From positions 1 to 64,000 of the forward strand of contig CAJODQ010000006.1 in the NCBI GenBank assembly GCA_905233345.1: a stretch of 64,000 nucleotides of DNA, given 5' to 3'. The position numbers and the translations under genes were made by a program. Shown here one piece after another: positions 42,895 to 61,428 of the stretch (positions are counted from its first letter, which is position 1; each line of letters starts with the position of its first letter). The DNA comes from an uncultured Bacteroidales bacterium. Its GTDB lineage: Bacteria; Bacteroidota; Bacteroidia; Bacteroidales; UBA932. Below the pieces are notes generated by a model. The model had not been told where the DNA came from. It ran no database searches and saw nothing but the letters and a program-made list of their open reading frames with translations.

Positions 42895-43416
42895 TCATTT
42901 CTTGTCCCTGCCTTCCTTCGGGGCCGGGCCCTGGGGAGGACGCTGGCCGTTTCCGTTGTGCTTGCGCAGGTTGTTGATCATGCGCTGCTGGAAGGCCTCT
43001 TCGGCCTGGTACAGCTTGGCCACCTTGCGAATGGGCAGCACCTTCTTGAATTTGGGATACCAGTCGGACATCACCTGGTTGGAGGCCTTGTTCGCCTGGA
43101 TGTAGGCGTCGACTTTCTTCTCCAGTTCGGCATCGGAGAGTTCGTCCGCTTTCGAACCGCGGAATTCGCCGAAGGCATCCATCATCGCCTTGTGGGAAAC
43201 CATGGCTTCTTTCCAGCATTGGTTGTACACCGGCCAGAACACCTGGGCCTCCTCGGGCGACAGGTCGAGTTCCTGGGTGATGAACGCGATCTTCTCGGAC
43301 TGAATGCGCTCGAAATCTTTCTTGCGCTGCTCTTCGCTCGGTTTCTGGCCCTGCGGCTGGGCGAAGAGGGTAACCGCCAGGAAAAGGCAGGCGGCGAAAC
43401 TAATGAATCGTTTCAT
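42895..43416 (-). CDS. periplasmic LTXXQ-motif / Spy-CpxP-like protein
   Basis: 173 aa with a signal peptide. Helical and lysine-rich, with spaced Gln/Glu motifs. Last gene of the ECF sigma operon. Confidence 0.55.
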   Translation of the reverse strand: MKRFISFAACLFLAVTLFAQPQGQKPSEEQRKKDFERIQSEKIAFITQELDLSPEEAQVFWPVYNQCWKEAMVSHKAMMDAFGEFRGSKADELSDAELEKKVDAYIQANKASNQVMSDWYPKFKKVLPIRKVAKLYQAEEAFQQRMINNLRKHNGNGQRPPQGPAPKEGRDKK

Positions 43417-43418
43417 GA

Positions 43419-43859
43419 CTAATAGGCTTGTGCGTAAATCTCGGCCAACTCGGAGAAGCTCAGCTCGGAAGCCAGATAGTCCAGGATGGCATCTTCGTCG
43501 AGCTCCGGCTCCTCGGTCGGCCCGGTTTGATAGTAATTGATGAGCGAAGCGGGACGGATCATCTCTTCCTCAGCCGTGGCGTACGAAGCGGACGCGTCGG
43601 TACCAGGTTTGTTCCCCATCGTACGGGTGAGGGATAGCACACCGTAGCCCATGCCGAAAATCAGGGCGAACATCGCGGCGAGGGTCAGCGCCGGCTTCAG
43701 GATCGTCCAGAAACGGACGGTCCGGGAAGCTGCTGGCTTCTCTTCGGCGGCGATGCGGGCCATCAGGCGATCCTCGAAACTGTCGAGGTAACCTTCCGGC
43801 ATCCGGAACGGATTCTCCCGGGCTTCAGGGCTGCTGAGTATGTCTTTCTGTTCGTTCAT
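43419..43859 (-). CDS. putative anti-sigma factor (single TM helix)
   Basis: 146 aa. Central TM helix ILKPALTLAAMFALIFGMGYGVL. Immediately downstream of the ECF sigma factor gene. Confidence 0.55.
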   Translation of the reverse strand: MNEQKDILSSPEARENPFRMPEGYLDSFEDRLMARIAAEEKPAASRTVRFWTILKPALTLAAMFALIFGMGYGVLSLTRTMGNKPGTDASASYATAEEEMIRPASLINYYQTGPTEEPELDEDAILDYLASELSFSELAEIYAQAY

Positions 43860-43891
43860 ACGGTCCTTAGACTATCCAATGGTTCAGAAGT

Positions 43892-44431
43892 TTAAAATTT
43901 CTCATCAATTTCTTCTTTCATCCATGTCTTGATCTTTTCGTAGGCATGGTGATAAGATGCTTTCAGCGCGCCTTCGCTGGTTTCCAGTACATCAGCGATC
44001 TTTTCGTAGGGCATCTCCTCGAAGTAGCGGAGGTTGAACACCGCTTTCTGCTTGGGGGGAAGTTTGGCGATGGCCTTGTGCAGCGATCGCTGGAGTTGGT
44101 CGCCATCGAACCAGGGGTCGGTGGCCAGGCGGGCGGCAGCCTCCAGGTCGAGGTTCCCGCCACGGGTCTGCTGGCGCGAGAGGAAGGTTAGGCTTTCGTT
44201 GGTGGCAATGCGATAGAGCCATGTATAGAGCAGCGCGTCGCCCCGGAAACGGTCGAGCGACTGCCAGACTTTCACAAAAGTGTTCTGCAGGCAGTCGTCG
44301 GTGTCGTCATGGTCGAGCACCATGCGGCGGATGTGCCAATAAAGGCGCTCCTTGTAAGTGGACACAAGTCCACGGAACGCCTTTTCACGCTCGCCGGAAC
44401 GGTAGAGTTGCAGTATTTCGGTATCGGTCAT
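43892..44431 (-). CDS. RNA polymerase sigma-70 factor, ECF subfamily
   Basis: 179 aa. Region 2 (...YKERLYWHIRRMVLDHDDTDDCLQNTFVKVW...) and region 4 (...VFNLRYFEEMPYEKIADVLETSEGALKA...). Confidence 0.85.
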   Translation of the reverse strand: MTDTEILQLYRSGEREKAFRGLVSTYKERLYWHIRRMVLDHDDTDDCLQNTFVKVWQSLDRFRGDALLYTWLYRIATNESLTFLSRQQTRGGNLDLEAAARLATDPWFDGDQLQRSLHKAIAKLPPKQKAVFNLRYFEEMPYEKIADVLETSEGALKASYHHAYEKIKTWMKEEIDEKF

Positions 44432-46214: not shown

Positions 46215-46294
46215 GGGTGAAGATTGTTTAGGTATGTGCCTTACAAAGGTAAGAAATAATTCGTATCTTCGTGATTCAAGATCGTACTCTCTCT

Positions 46295-47671
46295 ATGAAA
46301 AAAATCCTGCTGATCCTGATGGCCTTTTTGAGCCTGACGTCGGCCCTGGCCCAGCCGGCGCCGCTGCCGGAACAAGTGGTGCTCGTGCAGCGCGCCAACG
46401 TGACGGCGGTGTTCGGCGGACCGACGCAGCCGCAGGGCCGCTCCTACAACAACGCGCCCTCCTTCTTCATCTATCCGGACAGGAAGCTCGACAAGACCGG
46501 CGCCGAAGCACTGGTGGCATCCCTGGACCTGCAGGCCGTGCTGGATGTGAACTTCGGAACGGCATTCGTCATCAATCCAGTCGGCGATGCCTATGCGGCA
46601 GACAAGGACTTCGAGGTCTTCGTGGAACTGTTCAACCGCGCCCGGAGTGGCAACCTGAAAGTCATCGGCTTTGGCAATGGCGCCAGCTTCGTCAACCAGG
46701 TGCTTGCCCTGCGCGCGGCCGATCATATCGCCGGCATCGCCACGGTAGACGGCAAGCCCGCCAAACTTCCCAAAGGGTTCACATCATGGGGTGTCCCGGC
46801 CTTCGTGAGCGGGAAGAATGCCGCCAAAGTGGCGAAAGAATACGAAGCGCTGAACGCGGCCCAGGCCCCTTATGAACCGCTGTTGCAGGTGGTTGTGTCG
46901 TCCGCAAACGAGCCGGGCGCTGTGTTCGCAGAGGCCTGGGAAAAAGTTTTCTCGCGCAATTTCCGCTTCAACAACTACAAGCATACCCACTACGAAGGCG
47001 CGAAATTCGGCCAGTACGGTCCCTATGAACTCGAACCCTATGCCGAATGGGAACCCCTCGGCATTGAGCGCATCGTCGTGGAATATGGCGCCTCGTACCG
47101 GGGCCGCGATCTCAACGGCCCGAAATACCTCTGGTATGAATACTGGCCCAAAGAGCTGAAGGAAGGCGCACCGGCGCACAGCGTGCCGGTGGTCGTGCTG
47201 CTGCACGGCAATACCAACGACCCGCGCACCCAGGCCGAAACCTCGGGCTTCCTGCAGGTAGCGGGCGAAGAGCGCATCTTCCTCGTGGAGATGGAATGGC
47301 AGGGCACGCCCAACTACCAGGCCATGGGCCACGACGGCATTGAGAGCGTACTGGCCATCCTGTTTGAAAAATATCCCCAGCTCGACCCTTCGCGCGTCTA
47401 TGCGCACGGGCTTTCCGCCGGTTCGATGACCGCCACCGCACTGGGTATCAAGAAATCGCACCTGTTCGCCGCCGTGGGCGGCAATTCCGGCGCCCTGTTT
47501 ACCGGCCACTGGATCGGGCCGTTCCCGACTTTCGAAACCATCTGGGCCGAAGCGACCCAGAAACGGGGCTGCGTGGAGACGGCCTACATCTCCGTCTTCG
47601 GCACAATGGACACCACCGTTCCTTACATGACCCCCGACAACTGGCGGGGCAACAGCTACCTCAACGCCTGA
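46295..47671 (+). CDS. secreted alpha/beta-hydrolase (esterase), truncated by an in-frame TGA at 47669-47671
   Basis: Signal peptide MKKILLILMAFLSLTSALA. Nucleophile elbow GLSAGS. The frame continues without shift into the next ORF. Confidence 0.7.
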   Translation: MKKILLILMAFLSLTSALAQPAPLPEQVVLVQRANVTAVFGGPTQPQGRSYNNAPSFFIYPDRKLDKTGAEALVASLDLQAVLDVNFGTAFVINPVGDAYAADKDFEVFVELFNRARSGNLKVIGFGNGASFVNQVLALRAADHIAGIATVDGKPAKLPKGFTSWGVPAFVSGKNAAKVAKEYEALNAAQAPYEPLLQVVVSSANEPGAVFAEAWEKVFSRNFRFNNYKHTHYEGAKFGQYGPYELEPYAEWEPLGIERIVVEYGASYRGRDLNGPKYLWYEYWPKELKEGAPAHSVPVVVLLHGNTNDPRTQAETSGFLQVAGEERIFLVEMEWQGTPNYQAMGHDGIESVLAILFEKYPQLDPSRVYAHGLSAGSMTATALGIKKSHLFAAVGGNSGALFTGHWIGPFPTFETIWAEATQKRGCVETAYISVFGTMDTTVPYMTPDNWRGNSYLNA

Positions 47672-47686
47672 AATGCCTATGAACAG

Positions 47687-47968
47687 ATGAACGGGATGCC
47701 GGTCGTCAGCGAGATGGATTTCGAGAATCATCCGCTCTTCGGACAGCCGCTCCGCGACCGCGAAACGATCCGCACCCACAAGGGCGAAGGCATCGTCATG
47801 GAGACGGGCCAGCTCTACAAGGGCGACATGCCGCTCATCAAACTGGTGGCGGTGGTGGACTACGGCCATTGGAATTTTATTCCTGCCGCTCGCGTCGCAT
47901 GGGATTTCTTCAAACACTACCGCCGCGACCCTGAAACCAAAAAATTGATCTATTCCGCGCGATTTTGA
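47687..47968 (+). CDS. in-frame downstream continuation of the esterase ORF (contains the likely catalytic-His region ...VVDYGHWNF...)
   Basis: Same reading frame as 46295..47671, separated only by one TGA. The peptide resembles the C-terminal end of an alpha/beta hydrolase. Confidence 0.45.
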   Translation: MNGMPVVSEMDFENHPLFGQPLRDRETIRTHKGEGIVMETGQLYKGDMPLIKLVAVVDYGHWNFIPAARVAWDFFKHYRRDPETKKLIYSARF

Positions 47969-48088
47969 ACCATTTTTACCAAGTTTTGTAGCCTTTTGAC
48001 CAGCTTTTTTACCTTTCCCGCTAATTTTGTTCTCGAAATCAGCCGTGAAACAAATTCAATAATTATAAATTTTTAAAGTTTTTGCATC

Positions 48089-49348
48089 ATGAAAAAGAAA
48101 GGTATCATCATTCTGAGCTCCGTAGTCATCCTTTGCGCTCTCGGTCTTCTGTTGTCTCCCCTGATGGACTGGAATGTCGACAGCGACCAGACCAGCGGCA
48201 ACATCGGCAAATCTTCCCGTTTCTCCCGCAAGACCACGACCGAAACCGTCAGTAATGTGGAGGAACTCCTCCTCAACGATGAGGCTTATAAAAATGGTAT
48301 GGTGGCCGCTTACGTGGTCATGCAGACCCGCGCCCAGCAGTTCGACGCCCTCGTGGATATGTCCAATGAGGTGGCCGGCGACATCAGCGACTTCGACGGC
48401 GTGCTCAAGGATATGAATAACGTCCGCCCGATGATCGACAACGTGTGTGCTTCGCTCTCTGAAGCCGGTGACGACCTGAACGCCGCTCTCAGCGGTCAAA
48501 GCCGTCCCGACCTGGCGCAGAACACCATCAACGCATCGCTGGCATACACCACGCTCCAGAAGCAGAACAAGCTGGCCGACCGCTTCATCATCACGGCCGA
48601 CACCTATCTTAATAATAACGAAGGCAACGACCGCCTCAAATTCGTCCGCGACCAGTGGGTGGCTTACCAGCAGATGACCGCCGCCCTTGACAACGACGAG
48701 AAGGCTGCCGCCGCCCTGGCGGAGAAAGGCTACAAGCTGACGCCCGAACAGAGCGCCGCCGCCCTGAATGAATTCGGCATGGCCGATGCCATCAAAATCA
48801 TGAACGGCACCGTGGTAGCCGGCTACGTGGCTATGGACTCCCCGCTGGCCCAAGCCATCACGACCGATATGGTTCAGGATGCGGCCCGCGCCATCGTCAC
48901 GACGGACATGGTCTCCGACCATATCACCTTTGGAGACGCTATCAAGAACGCCACGGGCGATGTGGTTGCCAGCACCATCACGGACGAAATGGTCCGGAAC
49001 GCCACGGGCGACGTGGTTTCCAACATCACGACCGATGCCGTCAAGAACGCCACGGGTGACGTGGTTTCCAATATCACGACCGATGCCGTCCGGAATATCA
49101 CCCAAGATGTGGTCAGTAATGGTATCGTCATGAGAGCCTCCGTATTCTCCGACAAGGACATGGTCAGCAACGCCTTCAACGAGATCGTTGTCAGGAACAG
49201 CATCGTCAACAACGTGACCACCGACATGGTCCGCAATGCCTCGGATGACCTGCGCAGCTCCATGGTCATGAACCAGATCGGCGATGCCATCAAGAACGTG
49301 GCCGTCGGTAATTTCCAAGGCGTCGGCTTCCTGGTGAAAGACTTATAA
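48089..49348 (+). CDS. membrane-anchored repeat protein of unknown function (tandem 16-aa repeats ITTD[AM]V[KR]NATGDVVSN)
   Basis: 419 aa with an N-terminal signal/anchor. The C-terminal third is built from ~8 degenerate copies of a 16-aa unit, seen as a 48-bp tandem DNA repeat at ~48944-49135. Confidence 0.6.
   Translation: MKKKGIIILSSVVILCALGLLLSPLMDWNVDSDQTSGNIGKSSRFSRKTTTETVSNVEELLLNDEAYKNGMVAAYVVMQTRAQQFDALVDMSNEVAGDISDFDGVLKDMNNVRPMIDNVCASLSEAGDDLNAALSGQSRPDLAQNTINASLAYTTLQKQNKLADRFIITADTYLNNNEGNDRLKFVRDQWVAYQQMTAALDNDEKAAAALAEKGYKLTPEQSAAALNEFGMADAIKIMNGTVVAGYVAMDSPLAQAITTDMVQDAARAIVTTDMVSDHITFGDAIKNATGDVVASTITDEMVRNATGDVVSNITTDAVKNATGDVVSNITTDAVRNITQDVVSNGIVMRASVFSDKDMVSNAFNEIVVRNSIVNNVTTDMVRNASDDLRSSMVMNQIGDAIKNVAVGNFQGVGFLVKDL
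48944..49135 (+). repeat. 48-bp coding tandem repeat (~4 clear copies) inside the repeat-protein gene
   Basis: aacgccacgggcgaygtggtttccaayatcacgaccgatgccgtcmrg repeated head-to-tail. Confidence 0.7.
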
Positions 49349-49375
49349 TAGTACCTGTTAATTCCTTCTTCGAAC

Positions 49376-52375
49376 ATGCGTATCCGATTCTTTGTACTGC
49401 TACTGCTGCTGTTCCCGGCCCTGACGCACGGACAGATTCAGACCTACTACCAGTATAAAACCGATGAAGCCCGGCTGGTGTTCTTCGACAAGAACCTCTC
49501 GCGCTACATCCCCCACATGGTACGCATGTTCCAAAACGGCAAGGCGCTTCACGGGCAGATCTGGACAACAGACTCCGTGTATGTCCCGGAAGCGCCCCTG
49601 CTGCTTTTGACGGACTGGGAGGACGACGGCAACGGCGGAGCAACGCCGCTGCCGCGTTCGCTTATTCAGATCGGCATGGCGCCGCTGAACATGTCCTATT
49701 ACATCAACCCATCGAGCGAGCGTTACCGGCAGCTGTTCTGTCACGAATACACGCACATCGTGATGACCGACAAATACAACCGCAAGGACCTGGGCTGGCG
49801 CAAGTTCTTCGGCACCAAAGTCAGTGTCGACAACACCCAGCCCCTCTCCGCCATCTGGAGCGCCGTGACGGTCCCCCGCTGGTATGCCCCCCGCTGGTAT
49901 CAGGAGGGCATTGCCTGTTTCATGGAGACCTGGCTCGGCGGTGGCGTCGGCCGCTCCCTGGGCGGTTACGACGAGATGTATTTCCGCAGCATCGTCGACG
50001 GCGGCGACAAGCTCTTCTCGGTGGTGGGCCTCGAGACGGAAGGCTCCACGATGGACTTCCAGGTGGGTGCCAACGCGTACCTCTACGGCACCCGCTTCGT
50101 CAATTTCCTGGCGAAAGAATACGGATACGAGAATCTGATCAAGTTCTACAACCGGACGGCCGACAGCCGCACCTATTTCGGCAACCAGTTCAAACAGGTC
50201 TACGGCCGCCCGCTCCGCAAAGTCTGGAACGAGTGGAAGGAAGACGAGAAAAAGCACCAGGCGGAGAACCTGGCCGCCATCCGGGAATATCCCCTTACCG
50301 AGACCACGCCCGTGACCCCGGAACCGCTGGGTTCCGTATCACCGCTGGTCTATGACCCCGCCACGGGCAAGGCCTACGCCGCCATGAACGCACCGGGCAG
50401 TTTCGCGCACCTGACCGAGATCGACGTGAACACCGGCAAGCGGCGGAAACTCGTCGATATCTACGGCATCCAGCTCTACAATCCCGCATTCGTAGCCCTG
50501 GACCGCAACGCCCATCGCCTCATCTACACATCAAACAACGCCAAGATGCGCGGCCTCTACGTGTACGACCTCCAGAAAAAGAAAGTCGTCAAGAAGAAGA
50601 ATTTCCAGCGCGTCAACAACATCGTGTATGACAATGTCAACGACTGCCTCTACGGCCTGTTCTCCAATGCCGGCACGCAGTCGATCGTCCGTTTCGACCG
50701 TGATATTGAAAATCCCGAGGTCATCTATGCCTTCCCCTTCGGCGTCAGTGTGTTCGACATTGACATCAGCCACGACGGCAAGATGCTGACCCTCACCCGG
50801 CAGGGCGACAACGGCGAGCACACGCTCCTGCTCTTCCGGACCGACGAACTGGCACAGGCCATTTTCAAGCCCGTGGAGCTGGTAACCTGGGAAGACAGCA
50901 ACCTGGGACAGTTCCGCTTCTCACTCGACGACAAATACCTGATCGGCAGCTCCTACTATACCGGCGTGTCGAACCTCTGGCAGATCAACATCGCCACCCG
51001 CGAGATGGAGATGCTCAGCAACACCGACATCGGCCTCTTCGCCCCGCTGGAATTCGAGCCCGACAAACTCCTGGCGCTTGAATTCGTGCGCGACGGCATG
51101 CGTCCGGTGACGCTCGACCGCAAGATCGTAACCGACGCCAACGCCATCACGCTCTACGGCCAGCGCGCTTTCGAGAACAACGAAAAAGCGCTCACGGAGG
51201 TGGGCCTGCACAAGGAACCCCTGCCCAAGATCGAGTTCGGCGACGTCTACAACAACATCACGCCTTACAACGTTTTCAAGGAGATGCGCTTCGCGGGCGC
51301 CTATCCCATCGTCTCAGGCTTCACCGACACCACGTTCTGGAATCGTGTGACGCCGGTGCTCGGCTACCGCTTCTTCTTCAGCGACCCGGTGGGCCTGAGC
51401 AGCATCAAGCTGGACTTCGGCATTTCGCCCTGGAGCAACCACGACTGGAAGAACAAGTTCCATGTGGACTTCATGTGGAAGTACTACTTCTGGACCCTCA
51501 AGGCCGCCTGGAACCACACTGACTTCTACGACCTGGCCGGCCCGATGCGTGCCAGCCGCAAGGGATACATGGTTACACTGGCCTACGACCACACCAACAC
51601 CATGCTGACACCGTATTCCCGCGGTTGGGGCTTCTCCCTGGGGGCTTACGGCGGCATGGACGCGCTGCCGCTCTATCAGGAGATCGAAGTGGACAAAGAC
51701 ATCAAAGCGCTGCAGACCGCTTCCGTCTACGGCAAGATCTCGAAAACCCGGACGTCCCTGGGCGGCGTGATGCGCGAGCAGGGCTATGAACTGGGCATCC
51801 AGGGCTACGGCTACCTGGCCGACTGGCACTTCTATCCTTCGGTCGAGGCTTCCGCCGATTTCGGCGTGTTGCTTCCGATCGACCGCAATACTTCTTTCTG
51901 GCTCCGTACCGCGGGCGGGCACAATTTCGGCGATCCCAACACGGTCTTCGGCAATACCTATCTGGGTGGCTTCCGCAACAACCGCGTAGACTACCGCAAC
52001 GCCTTCCAGTACCGCACGTCCCTGGCCATGCCGGGCGCGGCCATCGACGCCATCCAGGCACACTCCTATGCCAAGGCGACGGCCGAGCTCAACCTGCGGC
52101 CCATCCGCCTCAACAACTTCGGCGCCCTGTTCTTCTATCCGACCTGGATCCAGTGCTCCTTCTTCGGAACCGGCCTGTCCACCTGGAATCCCGACGTCAG
52201 CAAAACGATCCCGCAGATGTACTACAGCGCCGGCGTGCAGCTGACCACCGAGCTGGTGTTCATGACTTATCTCAAGACCACGCTTTCCTTTGGTTACGGA
52301 CACCTGTTCGCACCGGAAGGATTCAAAGGAGGAAGGCATGGCAATGAATGGATGATCTCACTCAAGTTGCTGTAA
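49376..52375 (+). CDS. large (~1000 aa) outer-membrane-type protein: N-terminal HExxH zinc-metallopeptidase-like domain + beta-propeller region + C-terminal beta-barrel-like domain; unknown family
   Basis: Signal peptide MRIRFFVLLLLLFPALTHG. HEYTH motif (QLFCHEYTHIVMTD), and a possible third ligand in WYQEGIACFMETW. Propeller-like repeats (...LYVYDLQKKKV..., ...TLLLFRTDELAQ...). The C-terminus is rich in alternating aromatic/Gly residues (...GWGFSLGAYGGMDALPLYQEIEV...). Confidence 0.7.
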   Translation: MRIRFFVLLLLLFPALTHGQIQTYYQYKTDEARLVFFDKNLSRYIPHMVRMFQNGKALHGQIWTTDSVYVPEAPLLLLTDWEDDGNGGATPLPRSLIQIGMAPLNMSYYINPSSERYRQLFCHEYTHIVMTDKYNRKDLGWRKFFGTKVSVDNTQPLSAIWSAVTVPRWYAPRWYQEGIACFMETWLGGGVGRSLGGYDEMYFRSIVDGGDKLFSVVGLETEGSTMDFQVGANAYLYGTRFVNFLAKEYGYENLIKFYNRTADSRTYFGNQFKQVYGRPLRKVWNEWKEDEKKHQAENLAAIREYPLTETTPVTPEPLGSVSPLVYDPATGKAYAAMNAPGSFAHLTEIDVNTGKRRKLVDIYGIQLYNPAFVALDRNAHRLIYTSNNAKMRGLYVYDLQKKKVVKKKNFQRVNNIVYDNVNDCLYGLFSNAGTQSIVRFDRDIENPEVIYAFPFGVSVFDIDISHDGKMLTLTRQGDNGEHTLLLFRTDELAQAIFKPVELVTWEDSNLGQFRFSLDDKYLIGSSYYTGVSNLWQINIATREMEMLSNTDIGLFAPLEFEPDKLLALEFVRDGMRPVTLDRKIVTDANAITLYGQRAFENNEKALTEVGLHKEPLPKIEFGDVYNNITPYNVFKEMRFAGAYPIVSGFTDTTFWNRVTPVLGYRFFFSDPVGLSSIKLDFGISPWSNHDWKNKFHVDFMWKYYFWTLKAAWNHTDFYDLAGPMRASRKGYMVTLAYDHTNTMLTPYSRGWGFSLGAYGGMDALPLYQEIEVDKDIKALQTASVYGKISKTRTSLGGVMREQGYELGIQGYGYLADWHFYPSVEASADFGVLLPIDRNTSFWLRTAGGHNFGDPNTVFGNTYLGGFRNNRVDYRNAFQYRTSLAMPGAAIDAIQAHSYAKATAELNLRPIRLNNFGALFFYPTWIQCSFFGTGLSTWNPDVSKTIPQMYYSAGVQLTTELVFMTYLKTTLSFGYGHLFAPEGFKGGRHGNEWMISLKLL

Positions 52376-53409
52376 TGTCGTTCGTCGCTGCCCTTCTCCC
52401 CGTCGCCATCTATATTTTTGTCGTCTATAAGCTCGACAAATTTTCGCTGCTGAGCGTCCAGCGCCTGCTGCTGCTGGTCCTGTGCGGCATGGGCGCGGCG
52501 CTGGTCTGCTTCGGCCTGTTCTGGCTGACCGATCCGCTGCTGCCAGAGCGCGCCTCCGATATCCTCGACCCGATCCTGGAAGAAGCCGTCAAGGCCATTC
52601 CACTCCTAATCCTGGCCCGTCGCAAGAAGATCGTGTTTTTCATCGACAGCGTCATCTGCGGCGCTGCGGTGGGCGGTGGCTTCTCCATCCTGGAAAATCT
52701 GTTTTACCTGCTGCTGGGTGAAGGCATGAGCATGGGCACCGTGCTGTTCCGCGGCCTGGAAGTGGCCCTGATCCACATGGGCTGCAGCGCCATCGTCGCC
52801 GCCGGCCTGATGTTCGCCGTCCGCTTGACGGAACGCCGCAAGGCCGGACTGGATGTCAAGCAAAAAGACGTGCTGATGTCCGTTTTCCTGCTCATTGCAG
52901 CCCCGGCGCTGCATGTCTTCCACAACAGCTTCCACTTCAACCCGCTCTTCCAGTATGTCTTCGTGTTCGGGTCCATGGCCGGGCTGCTGGTGTGGACTTA
53001 TTCCTATGACGGCGACATGATCCACCGCTGGTTGGACAAAGGCCTGGACAAGCAGGTGAGCCTGCTCCATTCCATCCGAGAAGGTCAGTTGGGAGAAACC
53101 AAGACTGGCCAGTTCCTGGTTTCGGTCAAGGATTCCTTCCCGCCGGAAGTCTTTTTCGACATCATCTGCTACGTGCAGCTACACGTGTCGCTTTCCGTGG
53201 CGGCCAAAAGTCGCTTCATGATGCGGGAGATGGGGTTGGCCCTTCCGTTGGAGGAAGAAAAGAAACAACAGTATCTTACGCAGTATCAGGAATATATCGA
53301 TCTGGAGAAAAATCTGGGCAAGAGTGCCCGGATGACGATTGCGCCGGTCGTGAAGTTTTACCCGGCCGACCGTAAATCCCTCGATGACTTGTTGGCCGAG
53401 TGCCGGTAA
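52348..53409 (+). CDS. PrsW-family intramembrane metalloprotease (M82-like); alternative start 52375
   Basis: 353 aa, multi-TM. PrsW signature motifs E-E-x-x-K (LEEAVKAIP), F-x-x-x-E (GGGFSILENLFY) and H-x-x-x-N (VFHNSFHFN). Overlaps the end of the upstream gene. Confidence 0.7.
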   Translation: MDDLTQVAVMSFVAALLPVAIYIFVVYKLDKFSLLSVQRLLLLVLCGMGAALVCFGLFWLTDPLLPERASDILDPILEEAVKAIPLLILARRKKIVFFIDSVICGAAVGGGFSILENLFYLLLGEGMSMGTVLFRGLEVALIHMGCSAIVAAGLMFAVRLTERRKAGLDVKQKDVLMSVFLLIAAPALHVFHNSFHFNPLFQYVFVFGSMAGLLVWTYSYDGDMIHRWLDKGLDKQVSLLHSIREGQLGETKTGQFLVSVKDSFPPEVFFDIICYVQLHVSLSVAAKSRFMMREMGLALPLEEEKKQQYLTQYQEYIDLEKNLGKSARMTIAPVVKFYPADRKSLDDLLAECR

Positions 53410-53458
53410 ACAATCCCGTTTGGTTTTTTGGGCACAAAATCCGAAATTTGTGTCCGAG

Positions 53459-54547
53459 ATGACCTATACTTTTCCGGAAATGATGCTCAGTGCCATGACG
53501 GCGGTCTATGTGGCCGTCAGCGTGGTGGTTGCGGTGGTCCGCTGGGGGCACCGGTGCACGGCCTATGCCAAGCACATGGACTATTATTTTCCGGATTGGA
53601 AAACTTTTATCTACTGCTTCATGTCCAACATCGTGCTCTGTCCGGTCATCTTCCTGCCCGCAGAAACCGATGCGGTCCTGCTGTTGCGCATGATGCTCAT
53701 GCTGGCTTCGCCCTTTCATTGCGCGGTGCTGATTTTCAGTTATTTCGGCCGGATACTCAACGTCACCTGGTGGCGCAAGCCCATCTACGCGCTGACAGCC
53801 ACTTATACGGTGATGGCCCTCATCGCGCTGGTAGTCACCCTCATACCCGGGACGCAGATGCAAGGCGACTTCTTCCGCTGGTTCTTCCTGGTGGGTGACC
53901 TCTTGGCCATGATCTATCTGATCAGTTTTGTCCTGGCCCTGAACATGATCATCCGCGCGCTCCAGCGCTTCTCCGACGAGAACTATTCCAACCCCGATGA
54001 TTTTCCGAAGCAATATACCGAGTTCATTCTCTGGGTGTCGGTCCTGCACCTGATCATGAGCTGGAGTATGGCGTTCAACGGTCGGATCTGGGCCCTTTCC
54101 TTCGGTCTGTTCATCCTGTCCATCCTGGCTGTCGTCCTGCTGATCGGTGCCCTCAACCCGCACCGGACGGTGGAGGTGGACCAGCTGGAAGCAGCGCTCA
54201 ATGCCGAGAAGGAAGAAAAGGCGATGGAAACGGACATCCTCTCGCCGGAACGGAAAGAGGAAATTCTGCTCGCCATCCGCCAGCAGGTGGAAGAGAAAGA
54301 GGGTTTCCTCGACAGCCACCTCACACTCAGCAAATTGTCCCGTGACTGCGGGCTCAACCGCACCTATGTATCCTGGGTGCTGAACGAACGGCTCGGCGGC
54401 TTCTTCTTTTACATCAACCGCTGCCGCATGGCCCACGCGGACAGCTACAAGGCATCGCACCCGCAGGCCGATGTCGACGAGGTTGCGCTCGCTTCGGGTT
54501 TCAACAACCGCCAGTCGTTCTACAACGCCCGCAAGCGCCTCGGTTGA
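53459..54547 (+). CDS. polytopic membrane protein with C-terminal AraC-type HTH DNA-binding domain (membrane-tethered transcriptional regulator); alternative start 53384
   Basis: ~6-7 TM helices, then the cytoplasmic AraC HTH pair LTLSKLSRDCGLNRTYVSWVLNERLGG ... DVDEVALASGFNNRQSFYNARKRLG. Confidence 0.75.
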   Translation: MTYTFPEMMLSAMTAVYVAVSVVVAVVRWGHRCTAYAKHMDYYFPDWKTFIYCFMSNIVLCPVIFLPAETDAVLLLRMMLMLASPFHCAVLIFSYFGRILNVTWWRKPIYALTATYTVMALIALVVTLIPGTQMQGDFFRWFFLVGDLLAMIYLISFVLALNMIIRALQRFSDENYSNPDDFPKQYTEFILWVSVLHLIMSWSMAFNGRIWALSFGLFILSILAVVLLIGALNPHRTVEVDQLEAALNAEKEEKAMETDILSPERKEEILLAIRQQVEEKEGFLDSHLTLSKLSRDCGLNRTYVSWVLNERLGGFFFYINRCRMAHADSYKASHPQADVDEVALASGFNNRQSFYNARKRLG

Positions 54548-54553
54548 TCCAGT

Positions 54554-55363
54554 TTATTTCGGAAGACCAAAAGCCCCTTTGAGTTCGTCCATCTGCGCGT
54601 CGCTCATCCCTTCGGGCTCAAAGCCCATGTTGCGCGCCGCGATATAGATTTGGGCGGCCTTGTTGAGGACGTCCACCTGGTCGAAGGCGTTGAGGATATC
54701 GGTTTCTACGGCAAAGACGCCGTGTTTTTCCCACATCACCACATCGTAATCTTCATCCAGGGCCCGGATGGTCGCTTCAGCCAGCTCGACACTCGAAGGC
54801 ATCAGGTAAGGCACGATGCCCAGGCCACGCGGGCAGAAGGCCCGGGTCTCGGGAATCATCGACCAGAGCATACGCGTGGCAGCGTCTTTTTCGAGCCATT
54901 TCCGGCTGTGGGTCAAGGCCACCAGCTCGATGGGATGCGTATGCAGCGAGGCGCGGTAGGGCGAGCCTTTGGCCAGCAGGTAGTCGTGGACAGCCAGGTG
55001 CGACGGGAGCTCCGAGGTGGGGGCGACGGGCGCATCTGCGACGATCTCGTAGCGGTCACAACCCGGCAGGATGCGGATGATGGAACCGTTGGCCATGGGG
55101 TCGCGGGCCAGGTCGCGCATGCGGCGGCCCGTGCCTTTGCAGTAGAACCAGCAGCCCGCCAGGTGCGGCAATGCCTTGCCGATGGGGCGAGGCTCCGTGA
55201 GGGCCGGCAACGCCCGCATCGCATCGTCGACATAGGCGGTGATGTTGATGGTGATATTGCCGCCGTTACGCTCGGCCCAGCCCTTTTGCCAGAGATAGCC
55301 GGCCACTTCGGCGACTTTGTCGATTTCGGCCTGCAGGGCCGGATGTTGGATTAAGATGTTCAT
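54554..55363 (-). CDS. rhaD: rhamnulose-1-phosphate aldolase (class II aldolase/adducin family)
   Basis: Start at the internal ATG (MNILIQHPALQAEIDKVAEVAGYLWQKGWAERNGGNITI...). Class II aldolase fold. Lies in the rha operon. Confidence 0.85.
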   Translation of the reverse strand: MNILIQHPALQAEIDKVAEVAGYLWQKGWAERNGGNITINITAYVDDAMRALPALTEPRPIGKALPHLAGCWFYCKGTGRRMRDLARDPMANGSIIRILPGCDRYEIVADAPVAPTSELPSHLAVHDYLLAKGSPYRASLHTHPIELVALTHSRKWLEKDAATRMLWSMIPETRAFCPRGLGIVPYLMPSSVELAEATIRALDEDYDVVMWEKHGVFAVETDILNAFDQVDVLNKAAQIYIAARNMGFEPEGMSDAQMDELKGAFGLPK

Positions 55364-56370
55364 ATCAATTGTGGCAAGAAGGTACTGAATATTAACACCG
55401 CCAGACCGATAACCAACACCAGGATGGTTTTCTTCGAGGCTCCCTTCCATTCATGGAGAATAATGCCCCAGACATTGCTGAAAACGACATTGAGGGCCAT
55501 CAGGATACACCAGCTGAAGGTGATCAGCGTCGGGTATTCGCGCAGGAAGCCCTTGCCGAGGCTCAGGCCGAAGAACTGACTGTACCAGAGCAGGCCGGCC
55601 AGGGCACAGAACACCAGGTTGTGGCCCCAAAGGGACTTTTGCCTGTAATCGCCCCATGTCTTGTTTTTCGTGTTCTGGCTGAAGCAATACACGGCGTTTG
55701 TCAGAAAACCGCCGAAGGTCACCAGCAGCGTAGCGGGCAGGCTCTTGAAGATATCGGGGGTAGCTTCCCAAGTCAAAGGTTCACCGAAGCTCAGGCCGAT
55801 GTTGAAGCAGGCGCTCATGAAGCCGGCCAGCAAGGCTACGGCGATGCCCTTCCCGAAGTTGAACTCCTTAACAGCACCGGCTTGACCCGGCATCTCCCGG
55901 GCTTTCATAGCCCCTGCCACGCCGATGATGGCGATGCCGACAAGGGTGACCACCACACCGATGATGACCGAAGAGGTCAGATCATGGGCATGACCCGTAA
56001 AGACGGGGCCAAGGATGGCACCCAGGGCGGAACATGTACCAAGGGCGATGCTCTGACCGAGGGCGACGCCGAGGTAGCGCATGCTCAGGCCAAAGGTCAG
56101 GCCGCCGATGCCCCAGAGGGCGCCGAAGAGGATGGTCAGGAGGCTGGCCTTGGGATTGGCGGCATACATGGCGAAGAGGGATTCGCCAGCCGGGACGGCG
56201 AGGAGGGCGCCCAACAGCGGGAAGATCAGCCAGGCGAAGACGCCCTGGACGATCCAGTAGCTTTCCCAGCTCCAGGATTTGATCTTATTGATCGGCACAT
56301 AGCTGCTGCTCTGGCAGAACGCGCCGATAGCGATGATTAACAGTCCGATGAATATGTTCATAATCAACAT
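55360..56370 (-). CDS. rhaT: L-rhamnose-proton symporter
   Basis: 336 aa, 10 TM helices, RhaT family (...SYWIVQGVFAWLIFPLLGALLAVP...). Confidence 0.85.
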   Translation of the reverse strand: MLIMNIFIGLLIIAIGAFCQSSSYVPINKIKSWSWESYWIVQGVFAWLIFPLLGALLAVPAGESLFAMYAANPKASLLTILFGALWGIGGLTFGLSMRYLGVALGQSIALGTCSALGAILGPVFTGHAHDLTSSVIIGVVVTLVGIAIIGVAGAMKAREMPGQAGAVKEFNFGKGIAVALLAGFMSACFNIGLSFGEPLTWEATPDIFKSLPATLLVTFGGFLTNAVYCFSQNTKNKTWGDYRQKSLWGHNLVFCALAGLLWYSQFFGLSLGKGFLREYPTLITFSWCILMALNVVFSNVWGIILHEWKGASKKTILVLVIGLAVLIFSTFLPQLI

Positions 56371-56436
56371 TTGCGATAAATCTTCCGTTCCGCAGTATAT
56401 AGGGTTTCAACCCTATATACTGTCTCCACTACAGAT

Positions 56437-57687
56437 TTATCTCTTCGATGTTACGTTACGTTCGTATTTCTCGATTTCGGGGATAAAGGCCTCACCCACA
56501 GGGACATTGTTCTTGAGGTTGAAATAGTCGAAGACGGCGCCGAAGGGAAGGGTCTTGGCTTCTTCTAAGAGAGCGAGGCGCTGGAAGCCCTGGCCGGCGT
56601 CTTCGTATTCCCGCAGCTTTTTCAGCGGCTCGAGGAGGGCGCTCAGCAGACATTTCTGCGTGGCGCGGGAGCCGATCACGTAGGCGCCGATGCGGTTGAT
56701 GGCAGCATCGAAATAGTCGAGGCCGATGTGGCTGCGTTGCAGCGCGTCGGCGCGCACAATCTCCTTGAAGAGGTCGAGCGTCTGATCGTTCATGATGGTC
56801 ACATGGTCGGAATCCCAGCGGATGGGACGGCTCACGTGCAGCATCAGCTCGGGCACGAAGAGCAGCAGCGACGCAACCATGTCGGACACATTTTCCGTCA
56901 TCTCATAGTGTCCCGTATCGAGCGTGTACATCAACTTGCGGGTGGCGCAGTAGCCTGCCACGAAGTCGTGCGAGCCCACGGTATAGCTTTCCAGGCCGAT
57001 GCCGAAGAGTTTGGCCTCGAGGCAGGTCTTCATGCCGGGCAGGTCTTCCTTCAGGATTTCGTCCAAGCTCTGGGCGAAGATCTCGCGGTAACGCTTACGC
57101 TCCACAGTCTGGTCCTTGGAACCGTCATGCACCCAGATATTCATGATGCAGGGGTCGCCCTGCGCCTTGCCCATCGCGTCGGCAATGCGGCGGCAGCGCT
57201 TGGTGTGCTCGATCCAGAAGTCCCGGATGCCTTTGTCAGGGTTGGCCAGCGAAAGGTCGCCGCTCTTGGGGTGACCGAACGACGTGGAGTTGAAGTCGAG
57301 CTTCATGTCGTTTTCTTTCGCCCACTGGATCCAGCTCTCGAAATAGCGGACGTCCACCTGGTCGCGGTCTACGAACTTGCCGCCGAAGTCACCGTAGATT
57401 TCGTGGAGGTTGAGGCGGTGGCGGCCGGCGATCAGGCTCTTGGCAAAACGCACGTCAGCGCGCACTTCGTCGATATTGCGGGCGCGGCCCGGATAATTGC
57501 CGGTGGTCTGGATGCCGCCCGACAGGCCGTCTGCACTCTCAAAACCGATGACATCATCGGTCTGCCAGCAGTGCAGGGAAATGGGGGTTTGTTCCAGGAT
57601 TTCGACGGCTTTGTCGGTGTCTACGCCCAGTGCGGCGTAGCGTTCGCGGGCGTATTCATAAGCTTTCAGGATTTCGGAATCTTTCAT
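56437..57687 (-). CDS. rhaA: L-rhamnose isomerase
   Basis: Start at the internal ATG (MKDSEILKAYEYARERYAALGVDTDKAVE...), 416 aa. RhaA TIM-barrel family (...WVHDGSKDQTVERKRYREIF...). Confidence 0.9.
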   Translation of the reverse strand: MKDSEILKAYEYARERYAALGVDTDKAVEILEQTPISLHCWQTDDVIGFESADGLSGGIQTTGNYPGRARNIDEVRADVRFAKSLIAGRHRLNLHEIYGDFGGKFVDRDQVDVRYFESWIQWAKENDMKLDFNSTSFGHPKSGDLSLANPDKGIRDFWIEHTKRCRRIADAMGKAQGDPCIMNIWVHDGSKDQTVERKRYREIFAQSLDEILKEDLPGMKTCLEAKLFGIGLESYTVGSHDFVAGYCATRKLMYTLDTGHYEMTENVSDMVASLLLFVPELMLHVSRPIRWDSDHVTIMNDQTLDLFKEIVRADALQRSHIGLDYFDAAINRIGAYVIGSRATQKCLLSALLEPLKKLREYEDAGQGFQRLALLEEAKTLPFGAVFDYFNLKNNVPVGEAFIPEIEKYERNVTSKR

Positions 57688-57712
57688 ATGTTGTATATGC
57701 GTATTGTTATCT

Positions 57713-57790
57713 AAGTGCTGCAGATGTCCCATTTTTGGGGACATCAACTTCAAAAATGCCTGTATTCGCTGTTGATGTCCCACTTTTTGG
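57713..57790 (-). promoter_or_regulatory. two copies of a ~26-nt palindromic element (GATGTCCCAnTTTTTGGGGACATCAAC) in the rhaB-rhaA intergenic region
   Basis: Copy 1 at 57713-57738, copy 2 at 57761-57790. Each forms an 8-11-bp perfect stem with a U-rich loop. Confidence 0.6.
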
Positions 57791-57794
57791 GACA

Positions 57795-59282
<1,488 letters not shown>

Positions 59283-59283
59283 C

Positions 59284-61428
59284 TTATTTATACTTATACG
59301 CGACCCGCTGGAGGCTCTCGTCTGCCGAACAGCCACCGTAAAGCAGTTCCCATTCGCCCTTTATCGGGACCATGTCGCCGGCTTCGGGCGACCAGGAAAG
59401 GAAGGTCTCCGCCGTGAGGGGAAACTTGACCGTCACCGTCTCGCCGGCCGGGACGAAGACGCGCTGGAAGCTGCGAAGCGACTTGACCGGCCCTTCCGTA
59501 TCGGCCATGCGGCGGATATACAACTGGGCCACCTCGACTGCGTCACGGGAACCGGTATTCGTAATCGGAATTTCGAGCACGCCTCTCCGGACTTTGGCCA
59601 GACCATAGCTAAAAGTCGTATAGCTTAAACCGAACCCGAAGGGGAACACCGGCTCGTCATCCACCATGTAACGGTAGGTGCGGCCTTTCATGGAATAGTC
59701 TTCGAAATCCGGAATCTGCGCGGTGTCCCGGTAGAAGGTAACAGGCAACTTGCCGGACGGAACCACCTCGCCGAAAAGAATCTCGGCCAGCGCCGTGCCG
59801 CCTTCCTCACCCGGATACCAAGCCTGAACGATGGCTTCGCAACTCTCTTTCTCGGGCGCCAGTCCCATGGCAGAGCCGGAGAAATTGACCAGCACCACTT
59901 TCTTGCCGGCGTCATGCAGGCATTGGAGCAACTGCCGCTGCACGGCAGGAAGCTGGATGTCGGTACGGTCGCCACCCCGGAAGCCGGGCAGGTCGACCGG
60001 CATCTCTTCGCCTTCCACCCGCGGCGAAATGCCGCCGGCGAAGACCACGATGTCAATATCTTTCAGCTGTTTCAGCACGTCGGCAATCTCTTGGGCCGAC
60101 AAGGACTCTTTGCGTACGAGCTCGCAGCCCGGGAAGCACACCAGGTCGGGGATCCATTCGCGCATGGCCCCGGCCAGCGTCACGGTCTTTTCGGGAATCG
60201 GGTTATAGTTGCCCCAGAGCATCTCCGCGTCGTCGGCATTGGGTCCGATCAAGGCGATGCGGGCCTTCGGATCGAGCGGCAGCAGCCCGTCGCGATCCTG
60301 CAGCAGGACGATGGATTCACGGGCGATCTGGCGCGCGAGGGCCAGGTGCTCCGGTCCCTCAATGATGTCTTCGGACAGCGCCTCCCAGGGTTGATCGTTC
60401 CCGTCAAGTTCGCCCAGCCGGATCCGGGCGGCGAGCAGGCGGGTCAGCAGCGGATCCAGCTCCGCTTCGTCAAGCACGCCGGCATGTACAGCATCGGCGA
60501 TGTGCCGGTATGATTCCCCGCAGTTGAGGTCCGTACCGGCGCGGACGGCTTCCGCCACGGCGTGTTCCACGTCCGGGCTGTAGCCATGCCTCCCCGGCAT
60601 GAAGAAGTCGTGGATGGCCCAGCAGTCGGAAGTCACCAGGCCCTTGTAGCCCCATTCGCCGCGAAGCACCGTATCGATCAGGAAGAGGCTGGCCGCACAG
60701 GGCTTGCCGCGGAAACGGTTGTACGCCACCATCACTTCCTGTACGTTCGCCTTTGTCACCAGGTCTTTGAAGGCCGGGAGATAGGTCTCGCGCAGATCGC
60801 GGTCGCTCACGTTCGCATCGAAGCTGTGCCGGTTCCATTCGGGGCCGGAATGGACGGCGAAATGCTTGGCGCAGGCATGGGCTTTGAGCACCTCCGCCTC
60901 GGAGGGACCCTGGAGTCCCCGCACCACGGCCATGCCCAGTTGTCCGGTCAAATACGGATCTTCGCCATAGGTTTCCATGCCGCGTCCCCAGCGCGGGTCG
61001 CGGAAGATATTGATATTCGGCGTCCAGAAAGTAATTCCTTCATACCAGTCAGAATGTCCGTCCGCCATCCCGATCCGGTGCTTGACGCGAGCCTCGTCGC
61101 TGACAGCGGTAAAGACCGCTTCGATCAGCGGCGCGTCGAACGAGGCCGCCATGCCGATGGGCTGGGGAAAAGTCGTGGCCTTGCCGTTGCGGGCGACGCC
61201 ATGCAGCGCCTCATTCCACCAGTTGTACGGCAGGATGCCCAGCGATTCCACGCCACCGGCATCGTGTCGCATCAGCGCCTCTTTTTCTTCCAGCGTCATG
61301 TGGGAAATCAGCATCCGGGCCCGCTCTTCGGGCGTGGGGCCAGCGGGGGTGTCGGAAGCTTTGGGTGTCGGATTGTGGGTACAGGCTGCCACCAGGACGG
61401 CGAGCAGCAATAGACGCAAAGGTTTCAT
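59284..61428 (-). CDS. glycoside hydrolase family 3 (beta-glucosidase/beta-xylosidase-like) lipoprotein
   Basis: 714 aa. Lipobox AACTHN. GH3 N-terminal domain (...FWTPNINIFRDPRWGRGMETYGEDP...) and catalytic region (...VTSDCWAI...). Confidence 0.9.
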   Translation of the reverse strand: MKPLRLLLLAVLVAACTHNPTPKASDTPAGPTPEERARMLISHMTLEEKEALMRHDAGGVESLGILPYNWWNEALHGVARNGKATTFPQPIGMAASFDAPLIEAVFTAVSDEARVKHRIGMADGHSDWYEGITFWTPNINIFRDPRWGRGMETYGEDPYLTGQLGMAVVRGLQGPSEAEVLKAHACAKHFAVHSGPEWNRHSFDANVSDRDLRETYLPAFKDLVTKANVQEVMVAYNRFRGKPCAASLFLIDTVLRGEWGYKGLVTSDCWAIHDFFMPGRHGYSPDVEHAVAEAVRAGTDLNCGESYRHIADAVHAGVLDEAELDPLLTRLLAARIRLGELDGNDQPWEALSEDIIEGPEHLALARQIARESIVLLQDRDGLLPLDPKARIALIGPNADDAEMLWGNYNPIPEKTVTLAGAMREWIPDLVCFPGCELVRKESLSAQEIADVLKQLKDIDIVVFAGGISPRVEGEEMPVDLPGFRGGDRTDIQLPAVQRQLLQCLHDAGKKVVLVNFSGSAMGLAPEKESCEAIVQAWYPGEEGGTALAEILFGEVVPSGKLPVTFYRDTAQIPDFEDYSMKGRTYRYMVDDEPVFPFGFGLSYTTFSYGLAKVRRGVLEIPITNTGSRDAVEVAQLYIRRMADTEGPVKSLRSFQRVFVPAGETVTVKFPLTAETFLSWSPEAGDMVPIKGEWELLYGGCSADESLQRVAYKYK

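Follow-up and report, generated by a model that had tools for sequence, protein, structure and literature searches.

Nearly all that is known of proteases of the PrsW family comes from two pathways of Firmicutes, those of sigma-W and sigma-T, and in Bacillus subtilis PrsW makes the extracytoplasmic site-1 cut of RsiW. CPBP/Abi-type membrane proteins can act without any need for catalysis, as modulators of histidine kinases (Abx1 with CovS, SpdC with WalK) or, in the case of APH-1, as a scaffold in gamma-secretase. Membrane-bound AraC-type regulators are represented by TfoS of Vibrio and by the AraC domain that ends the hybrid two-component systems of Bacteroides, and ToxR, CadC and TcpP are regulators that act while membrane-bound. 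TcpP and ToxR are single-pass proteins with an OmpR-type winged-helix domain; their proteases (Tsp, RseP and DegS) are encoded elsewhere, and proteolysis inactivates them (PMC11323476, PMC7496328). Here we analysed a 64-kb stretch of DNA from an uncultured Bacteroidales bacterium (positions 1 to 64,000 of contig CAJODQ010000006.1, hereafter the window) in which a gene for a PrsW-like protease adjoins one for a polytopic membrane protein ending in an AraC-type DNA-binding domain. The original prediction, made from the letters of the window, was that the protease controls its neighbour by proteolytic release. We found that these two genes are not the unit but the last two of a four-gene operon; the protease and the two genes upstream of it (which we call g419 and g999) form a constant trio among related genomes, with the AraC-like gene adjacent in only 19 of 80. 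With moderate confidence we read positions 47962-54547 as one operon, comprising an operator/promoter, g419, g999, a PrsW-type protease and a seven-transmembrane (7-TM) AraC-type regulator, which would be the Bacteroidales variant of a widespread, undescribed envelope-signalling module with the mechanism proposed below.

The four open reading frames (ORFs) lie consecutively on the plus strand from 48089 to 54547. The first, g419 (48089-49348), encodes a single-pass membrane protein, as judged from the ORF, its hydropathy and synteny in relatives, and g999 (49376-52375) encodes an exported protein of about 1000 residues, assigned from weak Pfam matches, an HExxH motif and synteny. The protease gene (52375-53409, alternative ATG at 52348) specifies seven transmembrane (TM) helices followed by a cytoplasmic helical domain of about 130 residues ("PrsW-ext"), and the last gene (53459-54547, alternative ATG at 53384) specifies seven TM helices, a variable cytoplasmic linker and a C-terminal AraC-type domain with two helix-turn-helix (HTH) motifs. 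The protease and regulator ORFs, as first read, spanned 52348-53409 and 53384-54547; both were confirmed there, adjoining and co-oriented, but the two start positions had to be corrected. Because homologues of the protease are 344-349 residues long, its start is probably the ATG at 52375, which shares one base with the TAA stop codon of g999. The AraC-like protein has homologues of about 361-363 residues, so its start is probably 53459, leaving a 49-nt spacer after the protease gene in place of an overlap. The gap between g419 and g999 is 27 nt.

The protease matched the Pfam PrsW-protease profile (PF13367) at 60.3 bits over residues 72-206 (gathering score 23.5, E=2.4e-16). Its residues are numbered here either from ATG 52348 (353 residues) or from ATG 52375 (344 residues). 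The three PrsW motifs EExxK, FxxxE and HxxxN, which had been picked out in the original prediction, are all present and intact (E78-E79-x-x-K82, F112-x-x-x-E116 and H189-x-x-x-N193 in the 353-residue numbering) and are invariant or nearly so in an alignment of 40 sequences sharing 24-60% identity. In that alignment E70, F103, E107, N108 and H180 (344-residue numbering) are invariant, and E69, K73, H134 and N184 are at least 90% conserved. The retention of the catalytic residues across the family argues for a conserved enzyme. The fold is a polytopic, CPBP/APH-1-like helical one; a Foldseek search of the model against the Protein Data Bank (PDB) gave APH-1B and TMEM147, both non-catalytic, as the best matches, with nothing else significant and nothing for the C-terminal domain, and PDB sequence searches with g999 and with the protease gave no match. 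The C-terminal extension of about 130 residues, likewise described in the original prediction, proved to be real and family-wide; it is modelled as an all-helical domain (predicted local distance difference test score 94.6) and is cytoplasmic by the positive-inside rule. By profile, motifs and fold the protein is a member of the PrsW family (PF13367, MEROPS M82). Against the NCBIfam PrsW equivalog model NF033739 it scored only 13.9 bits (cut-off 225), and in sequence terms it is no orthologue of the B. subtilis protein; it belongs to a distinct subfamily with a C-terminal domain.

The g419 protein has a 4-residue cytoplasmic N-terminus and a single TM helix by hydropathy, followed 8-16 residues later by the periplasmic juxtamembrane motif TSGNIGKSSRF (SGNIGK here, SGTIGG in distant relatives), a conserved region of about 200 residues and then variable tandem repeats, which in the window are 16-residue units (48 nt x 3, 48942-49113). 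The repeats differ by lineage among the homologues compared (L105, L133, L156 and L175; loci from other genomes are given L numbers), environmental homologues having 9-residue units (SDAFRQxMA or ADLRAALxN) and L175 having runs of ANAVA, and their number varies between near-identical loci, the protein having 330 residues in L174 and 386 in L175. In three loci (L133, L156 and L157) there is no separate g419, and a cytoplasmic anti-sigma domain is instead fused to the g419 TM helix, motif and repeat domain. A motif of the form [SA]G[TND][IM][GAS] after the TM helix is common to the g419 family and to 20 of 23 separate anti-sigma factors (for example IAGTMAGK, VVGTIGKT and LTGTIGLD). These fusions and the shared juxtamembrane motif tie g419 to anti-sigma factors, and by these features it has homology with the half of some of them that spans the membrane and extends into the periplasm.

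The product of g999 has a signal peptide, weak matches to Peptidase_MA_2, and a zinc motif HEYTH (residues 123-127) with a downstream glutamate in WYQEG, after which a middle region follows. HExxH and the conserved downstream glutamate were found in all of 113 g999 homologues, and a weak Omp85_2 match lies near the C-terminus of the homologue in L088. We read the protein as an exported MA-clan zinc peptidase with a possible outer-membrane barrel, the predicted domain order being peptidase, propeller and beta-barrel. In nearly all loci g999 lies directly 5' of the protease gene. In the protein library, one 1365-residue protein (P0269) carries a protease homologue, cytoplasmic domain included, and a complete g999 homologue in a single frame, in the reverse order to that in the window; its junction runs through the g999 signal peptide, which is topologically possible as an eighth TM helix, and it may be either a true fusion or a gene-calling read-through.

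That the last gene encodes a membrane-embedded protein ending in a pair of AraC HTH motifs was borne out by structural superposition. AlphaFold modelled seven TM helices, a low-confidence linker and a C-terminal domain (residues ~263-362) that superposes on solved AraC DNA-binding domains at about 2 Å over 91-93 residues; the Pfam HTH_18 score was 25.6 bits, under the gathering score of 33.6. Of the features of the AraC/XylS family, the C-terminal two-HTH domain of about 100 residues is present and the usual soluble N-terminal ligand-binding/dimerisation domain is absent. The linker between the seventh TM helix and the DNA-binding domain varies in length among homologues. The longest periplasmic loop, IPGTQMQ, is highly conserved, with P130, G131, T132, Q133 and G136 invariant or nearly so. 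In a close relative with 82% protease identity (L010:140-582), the operator/promoter is followed by a 106-residue soluble protein and then by g419, g999, the protease and the 7-TM regulator. This small protein is 58% identical to the DNA-binding domain of the regulator and begins directly after the position of the variable linker, like a naturally pre-released form of that domain. Because L010 encodes this domain alone in the same operon, a free DNA-binding domain can, as far as gene content tells, exist as a viable protein. In a further locus (L033:5508-6588) the AraC-like gene is split over two reading frames by a frameshift or an assembly error and may be a pseudogene.

The trio was far more constant than the regulator. 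A scan of one genome per species with a protease alignment of 12 sequences gave 80 loci, mostly from rumen Bacteroidales, Prevotella and Xylanibacter, with three distant ones (two Muribaculaceae and one UBA1751). Searches with the four window proteins by tblastn found g419, g999 and the protease together and in the same order in essentially every locus covered by the contig, including L084 and L085, in which protease identity falls to 34-36%. The 7-TM AraC-like gene follows the protease in the 19 loci mentioned above; in the remainder the genes downstream of the protease are unrelated and variable, and the cluster is flanked by different genes in different loci. In L001 an AraC-like homologue sharing 52% identity occurs without the protease.

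More distant relatives were collected from the genomic context of distant protease homologues and from one metagenome scan, which gave 80 loci and more than 600 pattern matches. About 300 sequence clusters (50% identity) of the protease subfamily have E below 1e-10. Among the 27 environmental loci having at least 5.7 kb of upstream sequence, 24-25 carry a sigma-factor gene of the extracytoplasmic function (ECF) type in the cluster with the trio, and in 23 of 27 sigma-type loci examined a gene for a single-pass anti-sigma factor follows it. The window operon is without such a pair. Membrane-anchored AraC proteins, in turn, abut the protease in four Bacteroidales lineages: the window clade (7-TM); L174/L175, where g999, the protease, a 2-nt gap, a polytopic 369-residue AraC protein and two g419-like genes follow one another; L090/L091, where the gene for a polytopic 324-residue AraC protein lies upstream with an overlap at the protease start and diverges from g419 and g999; and L086, where a 202-residue AraC protein with one TM helix overlaps the protease stop. 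In L084 an ordinary soluble AraC gene lies 110 nt downstream of the protease. The regulator is therefore membrane-anchored in four of five types (the anti-sigma factor and the AraC proteins with one, about six and seven TM helices), the soluble L084 protein being the fifth. The DNA-binding domain was the sole part of the L174, L090 and L086 proteins detectably related to the window protein, and homology of the membrane domains is not claimed, because hhalign of the window AraC-like family against the L174 protein aligned the DNA-binding domain alone. From its position, the AraC protein here holds the genomic place of the sigma/anti-sigma pair of the environmental relatives. Literature searches on PrsW in connection with AraC, Bacteroidetes, ECF sigma factors or genomic context turned up neither this arrangement nor the module.

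Upstream of g419 we identified a predicted operator for the AraC-like regulator (47962-48000, plus strand), consisting of two 21-bp direct-repeat units of the form AWTTG-N5-TTTTKAC with the core TTTTAC-N15-TTTGAC at 47974-48000. The Bacteroidetes -7 box has the consensus TAnnTTTG, and a box of this type (TAATTTTG, 48022-48029, plus strand) was read from the sequence as that of the operon. The operator pattern is unique in the window, with 0 occurrences expected (100 shuffles), and occurs 38 times across 1.52 Mb of fetched loci. Of these occurrences, 28 precede g419 by 95-165 nt, only two of these being in loci without the AraC-like gene, and most of the remainder lie before a second g419 paralogue or beside another AraC-like gene. 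In L003-type loci an operator precedes each of two g419 paralogues, and in L001 it adjoins the AraC-like homologue, before an unrelated gene. Where both ends of the locus could be judged, the operator was found in 12 of the 13 with the AraC gene and in 2 of the 37 without it (Fisher p=9e-9, which ignores relatedness). The half-sites are 15 nt apart in 26 of 30 cases, and in all 21 promoter-proximal cases the -7 box begins exactly 27 nt after the start of the proximal half-site, while the sequence in between varies. By analogy, this predicted element has the layout that is classical for an AraC-family dimer acting as an activator. Because an operator before g419 is nearly confined to loci with the AraC gene, we predict that the regulator controls this operon, its own gene included.

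Two loci (L034:5602 and L082:5629) have the operator with the proper 27-nt spacing to the -7 box and no AraC-like gene within 10 kb, which suggests that the regulator gene has been relocated elsewhere in the genome. Other lineages have other elements at this place. L090 carries four repeats of its own (TTTGTGAA, about 21 bp apart) at the corresponding position. Eight Prevotella-type loci (L047, L049, L038, L083, L068, L052, L062 and L065), which are without both the AraC gene and the TTTKAC operator, share a ATGACATTTGACATCAGAG-like element with repeated TGACAT, 40-70 nt 5' of g419 and between promoter and start codon, which may be another operator or a leader RNA element.

The recurrence of the same gene set with either an ECF sigma/anti-sigma pair or one of four membrane AraC types, together with the predicted operator, makes a functional link between this protease family and membrane-anchored transcription regulators well supported by comparative evidence. 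To this extent the original prediction is supported; a direct freeing of the AraC domain by the protease is not, given the topology described below, the adjacency in only 19 of 80 genomes and the protease-free homologue in L001.

Topology was assigned from helix positions in the models together with the distribution of Lys and Arg. Both proteins are predicted to be polytopic with the N-terminus outside and the C-terminus inside. The same assignment places the catalytic Glu, His and Asn of the protease at periplasmic helix ends, and leaves the AraC-like protein with a cytoplasmic linker and with periplasmic loops of only 2-7 residues, so that active site and linker would lie on opposite sides of the membrane. 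Since the active site is predicted to be periplasmic, the AraC-like protein is barely exposed there, and g419 and the anti-sigma factors share a juxtamembrane motif on that side, g419 is the likelier direct substrate of the protease.

What the analysis shows directly is which genes are present and in what order, which domains they encode, which motifs are conserved and that the operator goes with the regulator gene; from these we infer which protein is cut and how cleavage reaches the regulator. An envelope signal would lead both proteases to cut g419 at or near its periplasmic juxtamembrane motif, at the face of the membrane on which the PrsW active site is predicted to lie. Loss of g419, the putative counterpart of the extracytoplasmic half of the anti-sigma factor in sigma-type modules, could then alter the activity of the 7-TM regulator via intramembrane contacts. 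A dimer of the regulator is predicted to bind the two 21-bp direct repeats, which overlap the -33 region, and so to control the operon and its own gene. We put forward tentatively, as a proposal with rather less than even chances, that a fusion of a 7-TM receptor resembling G-protein-coupled receptors to an AraC domain has taken over the job of the ECF sigma/anti-sigma pair, and that it is set by a two-protease cascade (g999 outside, the PrsW-type protease in the inner membrane) acting on the anti-sigma-like g419.

Several points weigh against the main reading of the locus and its mechanism. Most of the related genomes, including all Prevotella and Xylanibacter loci, have the trio without a regulator within 10 kb, so that the function of the trio may need no dedicated regulator. 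In the protease tree the AraC-positive loci fall within a single sector, interspersed with negative loci, and the Fisher test was not corrected for phylogeny. Ranking of the environmental loci used similarity to a single sigma-type protease, so that they sample one branch of the family, and the topology rests on the positive-inside rule and a model.

We considered four other explanations of the locus. In the first, it is the 7-TM AraC-like protein itself that the PrsW-type protease cuts, either unaided or as the step before a site-2 protease, and the freed DNA-binding domain activates transcription. The two genes are adjoining and co-oriented with a short spacer; membrane AraC proteins recur beside the protease family in four lineages, at the place of the anti-sigma factor that is the canonical PrsW substrate; and the stand-alone soluble protein of L010 corresponds exactly to the DNA-binding domain past the linker. 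The variable length and low model confidence of that linker, and the high conservation of the IPGTQMQ loop, also speak for cleavage of the regulator. With the active site and linker on opposite faces, however, a cut in one of the short periplasmic loops would leave the DNA-binding domain attached to at least three TM helices. The AraC gene is also the inconstant partner, adjacent in a minority of genomes in which g419 and g999 are constant, and its L001 homologue does without the protease. The premise behind this reading, that membrane-tethered factors are usually controlled by release, was too strong, as ToxR, CadC and TcpP can reach DNA unreleased. Proteolysis in fact inactivates TcpP (PMC11323476). 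We consider direct cleavage unlikely.

A second explanation, which we hold to be just as doubtful, is that no signalling link exists: g419, g999 and the protease would be an envelope machine for processing or maturation, with its product as the output (the protease might, for example, free g419 from its anchor to work with g999 as an outer-membrane protein), and the sigma/anti-sigma pair or the AraC-like protein would merely switch the genes on in response to an independently sensed signal. The absence of an adjacent regulator in most genomes that carry the trio suits such a machine, as does the tight coupling of g999 to the protease (by stop/start overlap and by the single frame of P0269), and the operator evidence runs one way only, from the AraC-like protein to the operon that it is predicted to regulate. 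Set against this, the regulators beside the module are membrane-anchored in four of five types, and the motif that g419 shares with anti-sigma factors, together with the g419 fusions, ties the substrate-like protein to a regulator. The only characterised function of PrsW, moreover, is the regulatory proteolysis of an anti-sigma factor.

Negative control is the third explanation. Here the protease, with or without g999, would degrade the AraC-like regulator to turn the operon off, and g419 would be a protector, as TcpH is for TcpP in Vibrio cholerae. There is precedent for proteolysis that inactivates a membrane-bound regulator protected by a single-pass partner (PMC11323476), and the placing of regulator and protease in one operon that is predicted to be autoregulated suits negative feedback. 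It meets the same topological objection as direct cleavage, its protector role supposes that g419 binds the regulator, and one would expect proteolysis in the sigma-type modules to activate, not to repress, all of which make it improbable. Least probable is that the PrsW-like protein is a non-proteolytic scaffold or modulator of the 7-TM regulator in the manner of APH-1, Abx1 and SpdC. In its favour, the best structural matches are non-catalytic (APH-1B and TMEM147) and the conserved cytoplasmic domain could serve as an interaction surface, but the active-site Glu, His and Asn are invariant or nearly so across 40 divergent sequences, the mark of a conserved enzyme.

Two features near the operon were rejected as parts of the system. 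A rhaD-rhaT-rhaA-rhaB cluster (54554-59336, minus strand) converges on the AraC-like gene, with the stop codons 6 nt apart; the aldolase and the RhaT symporter were identified by Pfam, and the isomerase and kinase are suggested by ORF size and position. This adjacency is not conserved in other loci, and a role of the AraC-like protein as a rhamnose regulator was rejected on the grounds that its downstream neighbours differ elsewhere and that the operator is absent near rha genes. On the other side, a minus-strand trio (42895-44431) comprises an ECF sigma gene (43892-44431), a small one-TM protein (43419-43859) and a secreted 173-residue protein (42895-43416). This sigma factor was rejected as that of the module: it lies 4 kb away on the other strand, with two transketolase-like genes between, and a similar sigma gene appears only in L008 and L009, the two closest relatives. 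Upstream of the operon, in the interval 46271-47966, a secreted esterase-like ORF ends at 47671; coding-like sequence runs on in another frame to 47966, which may reflect a frameshift or a short separate ORF.

Taken together, the distribution suggests that a PrsW subfamily with an extra cytoplasmic domain is a constant component of a widespread module, and that, over evolution, a sigma/anti-sigma pair and membrane-anchored AraC proteins have replaced one another as the regulator of this module. Rumen and gut Bacteroidales, whose envelope signalling is poorly understood, commonly carry the module, which offers concrete handles: a defined predicted operator, a motif that is a candidate for cleavage, and natural variants, both fused and split. 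If the proposed mechanism is true, the locus would supply the first case in which a protease of the PrsW family is shown to control a regulator that is not a sigma factor, and the five-part module would be described as a whole for the first time.

How does this system compare with those already described? With Abx1, SpdC and APH-1 the protease shares a 7-TM fold superfamily and partnership with a membrane-embedded signalling protein; these need no catalysis to act, and the protease has invariant catalytic residues. The regulator resembles TfoS and the Bacteroides hybrid systems in having an AraC two-HTH domain that is tethered to the membrane and expected to bind DNA there. In those proteins the sensor domain is large and periplasmic and no protease is dedicated to them, whereas the window protein is a compact 7-TM bundle with almost no periplasmic exposure. 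As in TcpP/TcpH and ToxR/ToxS of V. cholerae, the gene for a membrane DNA-binding protein is paired with one for a single-pass periplasmic partner, and the fate of the regulator is decided by proteases there, as we propose for the window operon (PMC11323476, PMC7496328). The window regulator differs from TcpP and ToxR in being a 7-TM protein with an AraC domain and in having the proteases encoded in the same operon. The nearest likeness is to the sigma-W/RsiW/PrsW/RasP pathway of B. subtilis and the PrsW/sigma-T/RsiT pathway of Clostridioides difficile, which use a PF13367 protease with the same catalytic motifs. In relatives of the locus an ECF sigma and a single-pass anti-sigma factor are encoded in one cluster with the protease, which recalls sigma-W/RsiW/PrsW, and the predicted extracytoplasmic orientation of the active site matches the site-1 cleavage of RsiW outside the membrane. 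In contrast to the sigma-W and sigma-T enzymes, the window protease is non-orthologous, bears the conserved 130-residue cytoplasmic domain, is always accompanied by g419 and the g999 zinc peptidase and, in the window, shares its operon with a 7-TM AraC-type regulator and no sigma/anti-sigma pair. By analogy, the system would work most like the sigma-W/RsiW/PrsW pathway, with the regulator exchanged, two further constant partners and an added cytoplasmic domain.

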